From the NCBI RefSeq assembly GCF_020969955.1, contig NZ_JAHDSX010000012.1, forward strand, positions 23,411-55,410: a stretch of 32,000 nucleotides of DNA. Direction: 5' to 3'. Positions 7,136 to 13,451 of the stretch are shown here, piece by piece (within the stretch, counting starts at the first letter, position 1; the number at the start of each line of letters is the position of its first letter). Both the position numbers and the translations under genes were made by a program. Below the pieces are notes generated by a model. It ran no database searches, was not told where the DNA came from, and saw nothing but the letters and a program-made list of their open reading frames with translations. The stretch is from Allobaculum fili. GTDB lineage: Bacteria > Bacillota_I > Bacilli_A > Erysipelotrichales > Erysipelotrichaceae.

Positions 7136-7193
7136 TCCATACTAAAAAAACAATCGATCGAATATCCGCCTCAGACGGAATCCATACAAAAAA

Positions 7194-7219
7194 GAAGCAG
7201 GGAAATCCCTGCTTCTTTT
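7194..7219. terminator. Bidirectional intrinsic terminator between the convergent permease and lipoprotein genes
   Basis: GAAGCAGGG-AAAT-CCCTGCTTC, a 9-bp stem, flanked by an A-run upstream and TTTT downstream. Confidence 0.8.
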
Positions 7220-7302
7220 ATATCTGTATCGTAGTGATTTTTTTAATGGATCGCAGGTCGTATGCCGGCCTGCTTTCTGTTTTTCCCGTTCTGGAAAAGG
7301 GT

Positions 7303-8982
7303 TTAGACGGACTGGCTTTTCGACTGGCCATTCTGTGTTGCGCCGGACTGCGCGTCCCAGTCGCCGTACGTGTCTGTATCCGGTCGTCTGGACGGACGGT
7401 TTGGACGGCCGCCGTTCTGGCCATTGGAATTTCCGCTTTCTCCATCCGGACGTTCTGGGGGCATCATGCCTTCAAAATCGTCGGGCATGTCTTCCGGATC
7501 AAAGTCATCCGGCATGTTTTCGGGGTCAAAATCGTCCGGCAGATCTTCCGGATCAAACTCCTCCCGCATCTGGCCGCGGCCTGGACCGCCTTGCATGCCG
7601 CCCGGGCCCATAACGGAAATGTTTCCGACTGTGGTCAGGCCTTCTTCCACAGTAAAGAATTCGCTCTTTGTGCCGTCCAGCCAGAGTTCGGCGTCCTTTC
7701 CAGCTGTGAGGTCCTTGCAGGAAAGAGTCAGCGTGATCGAAGCGGCATTGCCTGTCTGGGTATTGTTCCAGGTGATCAGCGTTTTTCCGTTCTGCTTCAG
7801 TTCGAGTTTCTTGAAGGAAGAGGCTGCAATCATGACGGTGTTCTGGGCGGCATCAGTCGGTTTGGTCGCCGTCGTGGAAAGACCGACTACCGTTCCGCCG
7901 CTGATTTTAAAGGTGCCGCGATCCGTATCGAAGGCGCCTTCCGGATTCTGAAGAGCGGCCGCGTAAATTTCGCCGCCCGAGATGAGCAGATCGCCGTTCG
8001 AATCGACGCCGTCATTCGTTTTGGAAACGAGGGTGAGCTTGCCGCCCTGAATGATCAGGCTGTTGGCGGCATTGAGGCAGTCATCGGTACTGTTGATGGT
8101 ATACGTTCCTTTTTCGATGGTCAGCGTGTCCTTGGATTCGATGCCTTCGCTTTCGGACTGGATCGTGTATGTGCCGTCTTTCAAGGTAACGGCGCCTTCG
8201 GCGCGCAGACTGTCGCCCTGGCTGGTGATCGTAAAGGTGCCTTTTTCGATGGTCAGCGTATCGTTGACATCTACGCCTTCATCTTCGGACTGAATGGTCA
8301 GATCGCCGTTTTGAATGGTCAGCGCGTCGCTGGCGTGAATGCCGTCTTCTTCAGCACTCAGCGCATACGTTCCGTTTTGGACAACGAGATCTTCTTTGGC
8401 TTTGACGGCGGAGCCGGCGGCATCGGAAATCGTCAGTTTCGCGCTGCCCGAAAGGGTCAGCGGCGCACGGGAATAAATCGCCGCGTCAAGAACGGCAATT
8501 GTACTGTCTTTGGCATGCGAGTTCGAAGAAACGGTGCTGGCTGCACTCGTTTCGATCGCCACGTCTTTCGCGTTGCGAACAAAGATTGCCGGGCCGTCGG
8601 TTACCGAAAGGTTGGCGCCGTCCAGCTTTAAAGTCACGCTCTGGTCTTTGGCGTCCACGACAACCGGATACTTGCCGGTTCTGGTCAGCGTGTACGTGCC
8701 ACCGTTTACGATTTTCAGACCGGAAGACGCGGAAGACAGATCGATAGTACTGGAAGATACGCTTTGAAGGTCGGCGATTTCAATATCGTCGTCAACTTTT
8801 TCGGACGTGTCTTCCGTTTTCTCTTCGTTCTGTTTTTTATTGAACCGATCCTTTTCGTTCTGGATCGCGGAAGAATCGGTTTCCGGCGTGTTTTTTGAAG
8901 GTACACATCCCGCCAGCATGGATGCGGCCAGCGCCGCGCCAAGCAGGGCGCGAACGCCATATTTTCGATGGGTTTTAGGCAT
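7303..8982 (-). CDS. Surface lipoprotein with Cthe_2159-like (carbohydrate-binding, beta-helix type) repeats and an acidic C-terminal tandem repeat
   Basis: 559 aa. Signal peptide with lipobox (SMLAGC). About ten degenerate ~22-aa units of the type G-T-Y-T-[IL]-x-S-x-x-[DE]-G-[IV]-x-x-x-D-x-L-T-I-x. C-terminal tail FDPEDLPDDFDPENMPDDFDPEDMPDDF. Confidence 0.8.
   Translation of the reverse strand: MPKTHRKYGVRALLGAALAASMLAGCVPSKNTPETDSSAIQNEKDRFNKKQNEEKTEDTSEKVDDDIEIADLQSVSSSTIDLSSASSGLKIVNGGTYTLTRTGKYPVVVDAKDQSVTLKLDGANLSVTDGPAIFVRNAKDVAIETSAASTVSSNSHAKDSTIAVLDAAIYSRAPLTLSGSAKLTISDAAGSAVKAKEDLVVQNGTYALSAEEDGIHASDALTIQNGDLTIQSEDEGVDVNDTLTIEKGTFTITSQGDSLRAEGAVTLKDGTYTIQSESEGIESKDTLTIEKGTYTINSTDDCLNAANSLIIQGGKLTLVSKTNDGVDSNGDLLISGGEIYAAALQNPEGAFDTDRGTFKISGGTVVGLSTTATKPTDAAQNTVMIAASSFKKLELKQNGKTLITWNNTQTGNAASITLTLSCKDLTAGKDAELWLDGTKSEFFTVEEGLTTVGNISVMGPGGMQGGPGRGQMREEFDPEDLPDDFDPENMPDDFDPEDMPDDFEGMMPPERPDGESGNSNGQNGGRPNRPSRRPDTDTYGDWDAQSGATQNGQSKSQSV
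7474..7554 (-). repeat. 3 x 27-bp in-frame tandem repeat (plus a partial fourth copy) encoding (D-D-F-D-P-E-[DN]-[LM]-P)n
   Basis: Plus-strand units aaaatcgtcgggcatgtcttccggatc / aaagtcatccggcatgttttcggggtc / aaaatcgtccggcagatcttccggatc. Confidence 0.85.
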
Positions 8983-9017
8983 GGTCTAATGTATCCTGTG
9001 TTGGATAGATTTCGAAG

Positions 9018-9087
9018 AAAAATCCGGATCCGTCCGGATTTTTCTGATTTCAGGCAGAGGGAAATCCGCCTTACCCTTCGGATTTTT
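9018..9087 (-). promoter_or_regulatory. Two tandem hairpins with interchangeable arms (attenuator-like) in the leader of the lipoprotein gene
   Basis: Plus strand: AAAAATCCGG (9018-9027) / CCGGATTTTT (9034-9043), and AAATCCG (9062-9068) / CGGATTT (9079-9085). The arm at 9035-9041 can alternatively pair with 9062-9068. Confidence 0.45.
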
Positions 9088-9224
9088 GATCCAAAGTTCA
9101 AAAAGCAGATGAAAGGATAAAAATGGAATTGTGGGAAAACAACAAGCAAATAAGGTTTTAATATTGTCTTTTATGGACAATATGGATTGGCTTTGCCTGC
9201 AGGAAGATTTTCCTGCCTGACTTT

Positions 9225-9863
9225 TTAGAGCTGTTCGCCGCCGTCGTGCAGATCGAGCAGGGTGACGGAAAGGTTTCCGTTTTCCGCGCGGATTTCGTTG
9301 AGCAGGCGCGTACTCTCAAAATGGCTGTTGGGAAGGAACGTATAGGAAAGTTCGTACAGCGTGCCCATGCCGGCGGTTTTCATCTTTTCAAGGTGCACCT
9401 TTTTTCCAAAGCGCGAAAGAATGTCCGTATAGACTGCTTCGTTTGGCATGGATTCGGGCACAACGATCTGAATCTGCATGAGGCTGCGGCGCGAAAAAAT
9501 CCAGGCGGCCAGAAGCATGCAAAGGTCCATGCCAATGCAGAGATCAAGCGCCGCAAGGCTCGCCCCGCAGGCACAGAGCAGACCGGTGACCATCGAGTAA
9601 ATGATGCAGATCATGTCCGTTCCTTTGGCCGGCAGAGAGCGGAAGCGGACCAGGCCAAAGACGCCGAGGACCGCGATGGACGTGCCGACTGAGCCGTTGA
9701 CGGCAAGCAGGCACGAACAGACGAGCGGCGGCAAAAAGGCGCAGGTCAGAAGCATGGAGCGGGTCGGCCGAAACGCGGCCAGACAAAGCAGAGCGCCGAC
9801 AATGCCGATTCCAAACGCGGCAAGAGTCGGAAGAAACAGATTGGTAAAAACGAGTTCAGTCAT
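9225..9863 (-). CDS. DUF4956-like polytopic membrane protein
   Basis: 212 aa. Four to five hydrophobic helices in the first ~130 aa, then a soluble tail (…VVPESMPNEAVYTDILSRFGKKVHLEKMKTAGMGTLYELSYTF…). GAAAGGA RBS. Same strand as, and adjacent to, the VTC-domain gene, which is the usual partner of this family. Confidence 0.7.
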   Translation of the reverse strand: MTELVFTNLFLPTLAAFGIGIVGALLCLAAFRPTRSMLLTCAFLPPLVCSCLLAVNGSVGTSIAVLGVFGLVRFRSLPAKGTDMICIIYSMVTGLLCACGASLAALDLCIGMDLCMLLAAWIFSRRSLMQIQIVVPESMPNEAVYTDILSRFGKKVHLEKMKTAGMGTLYELSYTFLPNSHFESTRLLNEIRAENGNLSVTLLDLHDGGEQL

Positions 9864-9978
9864 CGTATGGGTTCCTTTCTAGTGAATTTTTTCTGAAAAA
9901 GTCTTTTGAAAGCGGACTGTCTGGGGGAGGACAGTCCGAGACGAATCGGCTGGATCGGGAAAATCGTTTTCTTTCGAT

Positions 9979-10680
9979 TCAAACCGCCGGAAGGCGGTCG
10001 GTTTTCTGAATCTGGCGGGCATACGCCGCCCCGGCTTTGGAAAAGGAGCCGGGCACAATGCCGGGACGCTCAAGCAGGCGGCAAAGTTCTAAGGGCAGCG
10101 GACGGGAACACTTGATCTCAAAAATGTTCCATCCTTTTTCGAGCAGCGGGACATCGTCGGGATCGCGATACAGACCCGGGCGAACATCGCGATAAAACAG
10201 CTGGTCATCAAACGTCAGCCGCAGCGTGGGATCTTCCTTCCACACGTAGCAGAAGCGATGGGCGTACAGCGTGAAGCGCGGCCGTACCGGCCAGGTGTTT
10301 AAAAACGAAGCGATTTCTCTAGTGACGGAATTTTCGCCGGCATGTTCTGGATGGTCATAAAAGTTCTGAAGCGAAGCTTTCGTAAACGGGTGCCTTCGCT
10401 TAAACGAGCAGCCGCGAATTTTCTTTTTCAGCTCGAAAAAGAAAGCATCCTCCTCGCTATATACGGGCTTGTAGGCGCGCAGTCTGGCTTTGCACTTGTA
10501 GTCGGGCTTGCCTTCGCAAAGGCGCATGAGATCAAAGTGTTCGGTATCGAGGTAAATCGTGTAAATATCGCATTCAAAGTAAGTGTCCGGAATGAGGTGC
10601 TCTCCGGCTTCTTTTAAAAACGCCGCCTTGGCGTCTTCCTCGATTCGGTATTTCAGTTCTTTTCGAATAAACGTTTCCAT
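9979..10680 (-). CDS. VTC-domain (triphosphate-tunnel, polyphosphate-polymerase-like) protein
   Basis: I chose the start at METFIRKELKYRIEED (R-x-E-x-K-Y first-strand signature of VTC/tunnel enzymes). About 233 aa, typical for bacterial VTC-domain proteins. The 49 upstream in-frame codons of ORF 9979..10827 look non-coding. Confidence 0.7.
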   Translation of the reverse strand: METFIRKELKYRIEEDAKAAFLKEAGEHLIPDTYFECDIYTIYLDTEHFDLMRLCEGKPDYKCKARLRAYKPVYSEEDAFFFELKKKIRGCSFKRRHPFTKASLQNFYDHPEHAGENSVTREIASFLNTWPVRPRFTLYAHRFCYVWKEDPTLRLTFDDQLFYRDVRPGLYRDPDDVPLLEKGWNIFEIKCSRPLPLELCRLLERPGIVPGSFSKAGAAYARQIQKTDRLPAV

Positions 10681-10838: not shown

Positions 10839-10865
10839 TAAAAAAAGCGCCTGTCGTTCAGGCGC
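10839..10865 (-). terminator. Intrinsic terminator of the small-protein gene
   Basis: Minus strand GCGCCTG-AACGA-CAGGCGC followed by TTTTTTT. Confidence 0.85.
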
Positions 10866-10886: not shown

Positions 10887-11186
10887 CTAGTCGGCCTGGG
10901 CTTCTTCCCACGTCCGTCTTTCCGGAGAAAGATTATCGACGTAGTAGCGTACCGTCAGCTTGCCGGCAATTCTGGATTTGACTTTGGGTTCTACCACAAA
11001 GCAGTCGCCTTCCAGCATCTGCGCCAGCATGGCCTTGCAGGCGCAGGAAAGGTTTTTCGATCCCGGCTCGCATTCGTCCTGCATCTCTTTTGCATTCACT
11101 TCAATGTACAAATTCAATGCGTCATGAGCATTCTGTTTTCTGGTTTTCAGATACTGCTCATACTGCTCCTGAGTCCATTTTTCCAT
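10887..11186 (-). CDS. Hypothetical small protein (99 aa, four Cys), independently transcribed
   Basis: AAAGGAGA RBS 8 nt upstream of the ATG. Near-consensus promoter upstream and a strong terminator downstream. I recognise no family. Confidence 0.65.
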   Translation of the reverse strand: MEKWTQEQYEQYLKTRKQNAHDALNLYIEVNAKEMQDECEPGSKNLSCACKAMLAQMLEGDCFVVEPKVKSRIAGKLTVRYYVDNLSPERRTWEEAQAD

Positions 11187-11378: not shown

Positions 11379-11726
11379 TTAGGGCTTAATGACGGCGTCG
11401 GCTTCCATCATGCATTCCGTCATGTCCTTTAAGGATGTCGGCTCGCCGCATTCGAGATTTGCGGCCAGAGAATAGAAGACCAGACTTTCCTCGTTGACCA
11501 GAACTTTGCAGCCAAGATCCGCCAGCGCCTTGAGAGGCTTGAGAAGTTTCGAATCCTTGCAGGCGAGAACGACCGCCGAGTTATAGAGCAGGATGGCCTG
11601 CGGGACATTTACGCTTTTGGCGAGCGTATCGAGAAAGTCTTCCATCAGCGATTCGCCCAGACGCGGATTGCCCTGACCAAAACGGCTGGAGTTAAGAACG
11701 ACAATGCGTGCGTTTGATTCTGACAT
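11379..11726 (-). CDS. Stand-alone DsrE-like protein (resembles the C-terminal half of YedF-type selenium/sulfur metabolism proteins)
   Basis: Start at MSESNARIVV, preceded by AAGGAGG. The pattern IVVLNSSRFGQGNPRLGESLM…ILLYNSAVVLA…LADLGCKVLV…MMEADAVIKP matches the DsrE/YedF C-domain layout. The upstream part of ORF 11379..11918 has no RBS and a basic, low-complexity translation. Confidence 0.6.
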   Translation of the reverse strand: MSESNARIVVLNSSRFGQGNPRLGESLMEDFLDTLAKSVNVPQAILLYNSAVVLACKDSKLLKPLKALADLGCKVLVNEESLVFYSLAANLECGEPTSLKDMTECMMEADAVIKP

Positions 11727-12016
11727 GTAAATCCTCCTTGGATCCGAATCCCGGCGACAGGCCGTATTCGAATTTCTGTTTCCTTGAGTATTATACGTAA
11801 AACGAAAGAACCCATTCCAAAACTTCTGCTTTTTGGGCGGTCCGCCTTTTTTGCCCACACGGATCCGGAGAGATTTTTGAATGTCTGTTTTTACAGGCAT
11901 TCGTTTTTTTATGCACATTGATTTTTACAGGGGCTCTCCGTACAATTTTGAAAGATTTAAAGAAAAGAGTGTTTTCAGGCGCCACAACGCCTGAAAGGAA
12001 AAGGGAAAAAGCGGGT

Positions 12017-13362: not shown

Positions 13363-13451
13363 TGGCGGAGACGGTGGGATTCGAACCCACGAGCCCTTTC
13401 AGACTACCTGATTTCGAGTCAGGCCCGTTATGACCACTTCGATACGTCTCC
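13363..13451 (-). tRNA. tRNA-Ser (anticodon CGA), CCA encoded
   Basis: I folded the cloverleaf by hand. Acceptor GGAGACG/CGTCTCC. Anticodon stem CCTGA/TCAGG with loop CTCGAAA. Long variable arm. T-arm GTGGG-TTCGAAT-CCCAC. Discriminator G plus CCA. Confidence 0.93.

Follow-up and report, generated by a model that had tools for sequence, protein, structure and literature searches.

Introduction

The synthesis of polyphosphate (polyP) in bacteria is attributed to PPK1 and PPK2. In yeast, Vtc4 depends on being coupled to a channel in the membrane, and the Vtc2/3 domains, which are inactive, have no equivalent of Vtc4 residue K200. Host epithelium, coagulation, and phagocytes are affected by bacterial polyP. 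Neisseria and mycobacteria carry polyP on the surface or secrete it; to our knowledge its exporter is not known, and we know of no explanation for how polyP reaches the bacterial surface or the medium. Here we describe three neighboring minus-strand genes of Allobaculum fili, encoding a VTC-family tunnel enzyme, a DUF4956 membrane protein, and a Cthe_2159-family surface lipoprotein, within a 32,000-nucleotide stretch of contig NZ_JAHDSX010000012.1 (positions 23,411 to 55,410 of the forward strand; assembly GCF_020969955.1). We refer to this whole stretch as the window and give coordinates in its numbering. Our data suggest that these genes follow the logic of VTC in a split bacterial form, in which the membrane partner is unrelated to that of yeast and a surface component is added; the families themselves are known.

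The founding member of the lipoprotein family, Cthe_2159, has been reported to bind cellulose as well as polygalacturonate/pectate, with Ca2+ being required (10.1101/401869, PMC8746771), and one survey counted both Cthe_2159 and CotH among 40 Pfam domains that, in its comparison, occurred only in anaerobic gut fungi (10.1101/401869). Contiguous accessory genes beside Gram-positive pel operons include cotH, a 'poly-phosphate polymerase', DUF4956, and DUF4832 (Whitfield et al. 2020, 10.1101/768473), and the NELoc-2 locus of Clostridium perfringens holds VTC, 'tubulin-like' (i.e., a DUF4956-like membrane protein), and CotH genes together (PMC2879425). Both papers list the genes and leave their function unexamined. 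Since the VTC-DUF4956(-CotH) pairing is already in print, the module described here is not wholly new. In a literature search that omitted most subscription journals, we found no report of the Cthe_2159 link or of the adjacency of the founder to CotH, and no experimental work on joint action by the three families. In this literature, a phenotype was linked to a bacterial VTC gene in one case only, that of Clo1313_1989 of Clostridium thermocellum, a VTC-domain gene with weak signs of convergent mutation in ethanol-adapted strains (PMC10503014).

Gene 1 encodes a Vtc4-like tunnel enzyme

The three genes run from 10680 to 9979 (gene 1, 233 amino acids), from 9863 to 9225 (gene 2, 212 amino acids), and from 8982 to 7303 (gene 3, 559 amino acids), all on the minus strand. 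Gene 1 encodes a stand-alone, cytoplasmic triphosphate-tunnel enzyme of the VTC family. It matches Pfam VTC (PF09359) with an E-value of 8.3e-22 and 78.3 bits (cut-off 23) over profile positions 2-232 of 235, and the VTC family call made in the original prediction for this locus therefore holds. The product is soluble and basic and consists of the VTC domain alone, without an SPX domain and without a membrane domain. Its homologues are likewise 229-354 amino acids long with PF09359 as their only domain; NCBI names them 'polyphosphate polymerase domain-containing protein', and none of the three proteins has an NCBIfam model. The closest species-representative genome is that of Allobaculum mucilyticum, with 54% identity in gene 1. 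The open reading frame (ORF) of gene 1 formally reaches 10827, but we prefer the start at 10680 because homologues begin at the methionine of METFIRKELKY and a GAGG lies 5 nucleotides upstream.

A search of the PDB with the single gene 1 sequence gave no match, and alignment with yeast Vtc4 required profiles, for which we used a family profile of 82 members. The opening R6-x-E8-x-K10-Y11 aligns with R196..K200-Y201 of Vtc4, as expected for the R-x-E-x-K-Y first strand originally noticed here. Equivalent residues in gene 1 and Vtc4 are K10 and K200, R66 and R264, R68 and R266, E83 and E279, K85 and K281, K94 and K294, and R96 and R296, followed by Y139 and Y359, R142 and R361, R154 and R373, D158 and D377, E188 and E426, and S214/K215 and S457/K458. 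The last two of these (E188 and S214/K215) rest on a second HMMER segment, which scores low but is collinear and matches the motifs exactly. The tunnel catalytic residues were thus all found in the alignment, and the gene 1 residues of these pairs are invariant across the 82 sequences with the exception of Y139, the Y359 equivalent.

The AlphaFold2 model of gene 1 has a closed beta-barrel tunnel fold (predicted local distance difference test, pLDDT, 88). Its best solved match in Foldseek is the group of Vtc4 structures (3g3r), with a template modeling (TM) score of 0.77 and an E-value of 2e-13, compared to TM scores of approximately 0.45-0.58 for bacterial tunnel hydrolases and cyclases (0.55 for YgiF). 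Our data indicate that gene 1 encodes a Vtc4-like tunnel enzyme with the complete set of Vtc4 catalytic residues.

VTC, DUF4956, and Cthe_2159 genes are adjacent across many families

A motif scan of one genome per species gave 503 relatives of gene 1, and the best 80 of these 503 were analyzed with their flanks. Neighborhoods were counted over 82 non-redundant loci using our own ORF calls and profiles made from the window proteins. As the sample comprises the closest 80 of 503 relatives, mostly from Clostridia and Erysipelotrichia, all frequencies given here apply to that subfamily only. We found a DUF4956 gene directly 3' of the VTC gene and on the same strand in every one of the 82 loci. 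The stop and start codons of the two genes often overlap, typically by 8-16 nucleotides in the gene calls on record. That VTC is always directly upstream of DUF4956, often with overlapping codons, argues for a stoichiometric complex. Look-ups seeded with DUF4956 gave the same picture, with VTC upstream in 6/6 contexts and Cthe_2159 downstream in 3/6. In one Erysipelotrichaceae-like locus (L092:5202-6092), an intact VTC ORF 5' of DUF4956 is omitted from the gene calls on record, so counts made from called genes alone would understate the pairing.

A Cthe_2159-family gene adjoins the VTC-DUF4956 pair in 63 of the 82 loci. It lies downstream in 58 of these and upstream in the other 5, and the median gap is 14 nucleotides. 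All of the adjacent proteins tested (60/60) match PF14262. The co-conservation of the three genes that had been proposed is thus seen in full for the first two and in most loci for the third. The count of 63 is a lower bound because in two of the 19 loci without Cthe_2159 the sequence stops less than 1 kb from DUF4956. In the loci without this third gene, DUF4956 is mostly followed by unrelated housekeeping genes. Many gut Firmicutes share the gene set; by record title, carriers of the triad include Erysipelotrichaceae, Oscillospiraceae, Lachnospiraceae, Peptococcaceae, Coriobacteriaceae, and Streptococcus. The flanks of the loci are unrelated, with 541 neighboring proteins falling into 360 clusters.

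The only recurrent neighbors are an OmpR-type response regulator with a HisKA kinase (38/82 loci), ATPases of ATP-binding cassette (ABC) type (12 loci), and a few GT2/GtrA and NAGPA genes; CotH, DUF4832, and pel genes are not among the recurrent neighbors of the 82 loci. The two-component pair stands beside VTC-DUF4956(-Cthe_2159) in varying orientation (e.g., L019:7828-9809) and is absent from the window. It falls below every NCBIfam cut-off, including those of the PhoB/PhoR, RppA/B, and heavy-metal models. Since the pair is generic and PhoB/PhoR-type models fit it no better than others, it offers no clue to the signal. A gene for a NAGPA phosphodiester glycosidase lies directly 3' of DUF4956 in one locus (L032, 11381-12409) and near the pair in approximately four loci, including L065:11444-12415, and GT2/GtrA glycosyltransferase genes lie near the pair in approximately four other loci as well as in Streptococcus rifensis (L095:6140-7249).

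Gene 2 encodes a DUF4956 membrane protein

Gene 2 matches Pfam DUF4956 (PF16316) with an E-value of 1.9e-9 and 37.9 bits, above the curated cut-off of 30.6, and PF16316 is matched by all 61 aligned homologues. The DUF4956 family comprises 6388 representative clusters, nearly all of them stand-alone proteins of approximately 220 amino acids. In the AlphaFold2 model (pLDDT 83), five helices (residues 2-31, 35-54, 58-71, 81-98, and 102-123) are followed by a C-terminal domain (residues 129-204) of beta-alpha-beta-beta-alpha-beta order that weakly resembles ACT/ferredoxin-like domains. Both the DUF4956 assignment and the layout of four to five hydrophobic helices plus a soluble tail had been anticipated, and the model agrees with them. 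Across the 61 homologues, an LVRFRS loop between helices 3 and 4 (residues 71-76) is invariant, and the family shares an N-G-S-x-G turn between helices 2 and 3 together with MGTLYEL and RNGNL motifs in the soluble domain. The basic loops RPTRS, RFRS, and SRRS all lie on one side and therefore suggest an N-out/C-in topology, which would place the ACT-like domain and the invariant loop on the cytoplasmic side.

We considered whether DUF4956 is a relative of MgtC/SapB/YhiD, given weak matches to Pfam MgtC (PF02308) in 18 of the 61 homologues (best E-value 0.27) and the name 'YhiD' in one source. Homology to YhiD is unsupported, with an hhalign probability of 0.25% against the Escherichia coli protein, and the likeness is one of layout only (i.e., approximately 215 amino acids, with a helical membrane part at the N terminus and an ACT-like domain at the C terminus). 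Two VTC/DUF4956 fusions (P0191 and P0221) were considered as Rosetta-stone evidence and discounted; both domains are truncated in each, so the fusions look like deletions or assembly errors across the gene junction. In Allobaculum sp. Allo2, the recorded DUF4956 protein (P0018) is 134 amino acids long and is 95% identical to the window protein over 56% of its length; the gene may be truncated or frameshifted there.

Gene 3 encodes an acidic beta-helix lipoprotein

Gene 3 matches Pfam Cthe_2159 (PF14262) with an E-value of 2e-52 and 178.5 bits (cut-off 25.8), and it is homologous to PDB entry 4PEU, the crystallized founder Cthe_2159, with an E-value of 1.5e-13. The protein is composed, in order, of a signal peptide with lipobox, an acidic linker, a beta-helix of approximately 13 rungs, a small C-terminal domain, and a disordered acidic/Gly-rich tail. 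The signal peptide (8905-8982, minus strand) ends in the lipobox M-L-A-G-C26 (...AASMLAGC26). The column of the lipobox Cys is kept in at least 90% of 60 homologues, and a simple lipobox pattern is present in 43 of the 60. The beta-helix (residues 86-375; 7858-8727, minus strand) is built of 22-residue rungs, with autocorrelation z-scores of 7.6 at lag 22 and 8.1 at lag 44. Its rungs carry conserved D/E/N positions, and K196, D197, D219, E279, E282, D301, N304, D324, D327, N329, and D352 are nearly invariant. The C-terminal tail contains an acidic tandem repeat (7472-7569, minus strand) of 27 nucleotides in 3.6 copies that encodes DDFDPE(D/N)(L/M)P (Tandem Repeats Finder score 119). The family call, the lipobox, the 22-residue period, and the acidic repeat tail had all been read from this gene at the outset, and the profile and structure matches, Cys conservation, autocorrelation, and repeat finder uphold each of them.

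The protein is strongly acidic, with an isoelectric point (pI) of 4.26 and a net charge of -43, close to the family medians of 4.2 and approximately -44. Binding of a polyanion would therefore need bridging cations. The ladder of D/E/N residues and the low pI are compatible with Ca2+-dependent polymer binding as in the founder.

Cthe_2159 and CotH proteins share one association network

The founder Cthe_2159 (99% match; L093:4556-7861) and its orthologue in Acetivibrio clariflavus (L094:4553-7870) are both short proteins, and both are encoded immediately 3' of a CotH-domain protein of approximately 800 amino acids with the domains LTD/Fn3_assoc/CHB_HEX_C_1/CotH. The A. clariflavus pair lies within an exopolysaccharide locus that also holds a pyruvyl transferase, a priming transferase, a UDP-glucose dehydrogenase, glycosyltransferases, and Wzy. 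A Cthe_2159 search seeded with the founder found two distant members, one from Streptococcus and one from a 2.3-Mb metagenomic assembly, in VTC-DUF4956 triads. The adjacency of the founder to CotH ties the CotH and Cthe_2159 variants together, and the adjacencies among VTC, DUF4956, Cthe_2159, and CotH therefore make up one association network of four families. As predicted from these sequences, the network is a cytoplasmic enzyme and its membrane partner joined to one or the other extracytoplasmic protein.

Locus layout and transcription in the window

The arrangement of three same-strand genes between two terminators, as it had been described originally, was confirmed by the ORFs and by hairpin folding. 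Upstream, the intrinsic terminator of a small gene (10887-11186) lies at 10839-10865 on the minus strand, where a stem (10865-10847) is followed by UUUUUUU (folding free energy -13.3, z-score -4.6); it is predicted to shield gene 1 from transcription arriving from upstream. Downstream, a bidirectional terminator at approximately 7189-7222 (both strands), with a 12-bp stem between A- and U-runs (folding free energy -24.1, z-score -6.8), is common to gene 3 on the minus strand and a convergent xanthine/uracil permease gene on the plus strand.

The three genes directly adjoin or overlap one another in most loci, whereas in this window the spacing is 115 nucleotides between genes 1 and 2 and 242 nucleotides between genes 2 and 3. 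The second spacer (8983-9224, minus strand) is structured (z-score -5.6). It contains one hairpin (9216-9199) that directly follows the stop codon of gene 2 and another, of 11 bp (9043-9018; AAAAATCCGGA/TCCGGATTTTT), that is A/U-flanked with a U-run and sits approximately 35 nucleotides 5' of the gene 3 start, just ahead of the ribosome-binding region. This second hairpin is terminator-like and could be a terminator or an attenuator. Given the structured spacer and the hairpin, gene 3 may be separately or conditionally transcribed here, and the three genes may belong to more than one operon in this window. Long spacers are present in the nearest relatives too but cannot be aligned with that of the window. 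We considered a regulatory RNA in this spacer and rejected it, as no Rfam family matches 8983-9224 and the nearest relatives show no conservation of its sequence.

The other genes of the window are unrelated and include those for an AddAB-type helicase-nuclease, a class A beta-lactamase-like protein, a cation-diffusion facilitator, an ABC transporter, and a P-type ATPase, among others; no CotH, PPK, PPX, DUF4832, or Pel gene is present among the annotated window ORFs. The sole Rfam match in the window is a transfer RNA gene at 13366-13451 on the minus strand (56 bits). Two small minus-strand ORFs upstream of gene 1 (10887-11186 and 11379-11918) have no Pfam match, and relatives of the second, of 179 amino acids, occur near the triad in three other loci. 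The otherwise syntenic locus of A. mucilyticum (L001:11541-15641) carries an insert of four genes between its triad and its permease gene; they encode DHHW/AlgX, MBOAT, DUF4358, and GDSL lipase proteins and are absent from the window. This insert looks like a polysaccharide O-acylation cassette.

A candidate route for surface polyP

We reasoned that these data are best read as membrane-coupled synthesis of polyP with export to the cell surface, to which we give a probability of roughly 40%. The recurrent adjacent partners (i.e., Cthe_2159 and CotH) are extracytoplasmic while the enzyme is cytoplasmic, which favors export. The LVRFRS loop and the ACT-like domain of DUF4956 could dock the VTC enzyme at the cytoplasmic face, and an oligomer of DUF4956 would form the route across the membrane. 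The gene 1 enzyme would then polymerize the gamma-phosphate of a nucleoside triphosphate (NTP) into polyP, as Vtc4 does, and the chain would reach the outer face of the membrane by way of DUF4956, either through it or along it. There, the tethered acidic lipoprotein would receive or use the chain via bridging Ca2+ or Mg2+, comparable to the founder with polygalacturonate, and a secreted CotH kinase would stand in for the lipoprotein in other genomes. The net effect would be PPK-independent polyP that is displayed on the surface or serves as an extracellular supply of phosphoanhydride.

Several points weigh against this proposal. Sequence alone does not tell in which direction transport would run. 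On strand 1, the position of Thr198 in Vtc4 is occupied in gene 1 by Glu8, as is usual for tunnel hydrolases and cyclases. Profile and model searches with gene 2 matched neither the channel domain of yeast VTC nor any channel of solved structure, and the 25 most-matched families listed for the 61 DUF4956 members (E-values up to 5) do not include the Vtc1-type Pfam family. The helices of these 61 homologues hold few conserved polar residues, which makes a DUF4956 pore a conjecture. The acidity of gene 3 and its family (median pI 4.2) would be unfavorable to direct binding of polyP. Approximately 23% of loci are without Cthe_2159, including close relatives (L004 and L092), and in this window the terminator-like hairpin appears to part gene 3 from genes 1 and 2. 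Lastly, we found no biochemical or genetic data for any bacterial VTC or DUF4956 member in the literature searched, most subscription journals lying outside the search, in line with the initial statement that these proteins have no experimentally assigned function.

Some of these points would suit a membrane-anchored synthase of intracellular polyP, in which DUF4956 only tethers or regulates the enzyme (e.g., through ligand sensing by the ACT-like domain), polyP stays in the cytoplasm, and the lipoprotein is linked only by regulation or physiology such as cation or envelope homeostasis. We consider this unlikely overall, though it survives better than the other alternatives. The catalytic residues of gene 1 are intact, and the cytoplasmic ACT-like domain, the helices poor in conserved polar residues, the loci where the VTC-DUF4956 pair stands without Cthe_2159, and the two-component system adjacent in 38/82 loci are all in keeping with it. 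It leaves the extracytoplasmic nature of the recurrent partners unexplained. Moreover, cytosolic polyP synthesis of the PPK type needs no membrane partner.

The retained Glu8 raises the question of whether the tunnel enzyme is a polymerase at all. It could instead hydrolyze or convert a triphosphate (tripolyphosphate, NTP, or a cyclase-type reaction) and thereby energize or signal to DUF4956, or it could make another phosphoanhydride-linked surface product. Glu8 belongs to the classical ExExK motif, which is absent from Vtc4, characterized bacterial tunnel enzymes are mostly hydrolases or cyclases, as among the lower-ranked fold matches, and a NAGPA or GT2/GtrA gene is adjacent in a few loci. 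Nevertheless, gene 1 is distinctly nearer to Vtc4 than to the hydrolases in both sequence and fold, and every aligned Vtc4 polymerase residue is present, including the K200 equivalent. A non-polymerase seems to us somewhat less probable than a cytoplasmic synthase.

The same parts would also fit transport in the reverse direction, such that the beta-helix captures external polyP or another anionic polymer, DUF4956 imports it, and the VTC enzyme at the inner face hydrolyzes the polymer or transfers its phosphate to ADP to yield ATP. The hosts are gut and rumen anaerobes by record title, and a tethered lipoprotein would resemble the substrate-binding lipoproteins of Gram-positive uptake systems. 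We found neither a periplasmic-binding-protein fold nor an ABC or other energized transporter conserved with the set; the ABC ATPases of 12 loci are in varying positions. In addition, we know of no Vtc4-family enzyme that runs in reverse physiologically, and we regard scavenging as improbable. Finally, accidental adjacency of an ordinary plant-polysaccharide binder to an unrelated VTC-DUF4956 pair, which the binding of cellulose and pectate by the founder and a possible separate transcript of gene 3 in this window would suit, is very improbable and close to refuted by the neighborhood statistics, since the genes adjoin in 63/82 loci over many families, with a median gap of 14 nucleotides, an order that is sometimes permuted, and unrelated flanks.

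Export of polyP, if correct, would give DUF4956 a role and would revise the annotation of Cthe_2159, which is now plant-carbohydrate binding. It would also link both families to the puzzling secreted CotH kinases. The module is a concrete and widespread candidate for surface polyP, with 503 relatives of gene 1 among species-representative genomes and 6388 DUF4956 clusters, and its hosts include mucus-associated gut bacteria (Allobaculum) and pathogens (the NELoc-2 variant of C. perfringens). We further speculate, and hold it doubtful, that gut and rumen Firmicutes possess a third, PPK-independent polyP route, in which a split polymerase docked on DUF4956 exports the chain, which is then held as a cation-bridged surface layer by acidic lipoproteins or serves as the extracellular phosphoanhydride donor for lipoproteins and CotH kinases. 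Such a route would account for the presence of polyP outside bacterial cells and for how a kinase could act where ATP is lacking.

Comparison with known systems

PPK1 and PPK2 share only the proposed product with this module, polyP made from NTP. They are unrelated to gene 1 in sequence and fold, and they are soluble or peripheral enzymes without dedicated membrane or surface partners. Bacterial tunnel hydrolases (i.e., E. coli YgiF, CYTH/CHAD proteins, and class IV adenylate cyclases) belong to the same tunnel fold superfamily as gene 1, but they match its model more weakly, lie outside the VTC profile, and have no DUF4956 partner.

On the surface side, Cthe_2159 of C. thermocellum (4PEU/4PHB) is a polysaccharide-lyase-like beta-helix that shares with gene 3 its Pfam family and its beta-helix. 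The founder has 286 amino acids and adjoins CotH rather than VTC and DUF4956, whereas gene 3 has 559 amino acids and is a lipoprotein with approximately 13 rungs, to which a further C-terminal domain and an acidic repeat tail are added. The clusters nearest in gene content are the pel-accessory and NELoc-2 clusters, in which the VTC-DUF4956 core pair is likewise joined to a secreted or surface partner. That partner is CotH there and a Cthe_2159 lipoprotein here, where CotH, DUF4832, and pel genes are absent from the window.

The closest counterpart of the enzyme is the eukaryotic VTC complex (3G3Q/3G3R, 7YTJ, and 8I6V), which shares with gene 1 its Pfam family, its tunnel residues, and the best structural match, and in which the enzyme is likewise obligatorily paired with a membrane protein. 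Eukaryotic Vtc4 is fused to an N-terminal SPX domain and a C-terminal three-helix membrane domain, while gene 1 has neither. The bacterial module further differs in that its membrane partner, DUF4956, has no detectable relation to the VTC membrane domain, in the addition of a surface lipoprotein, and in its bacterial host.

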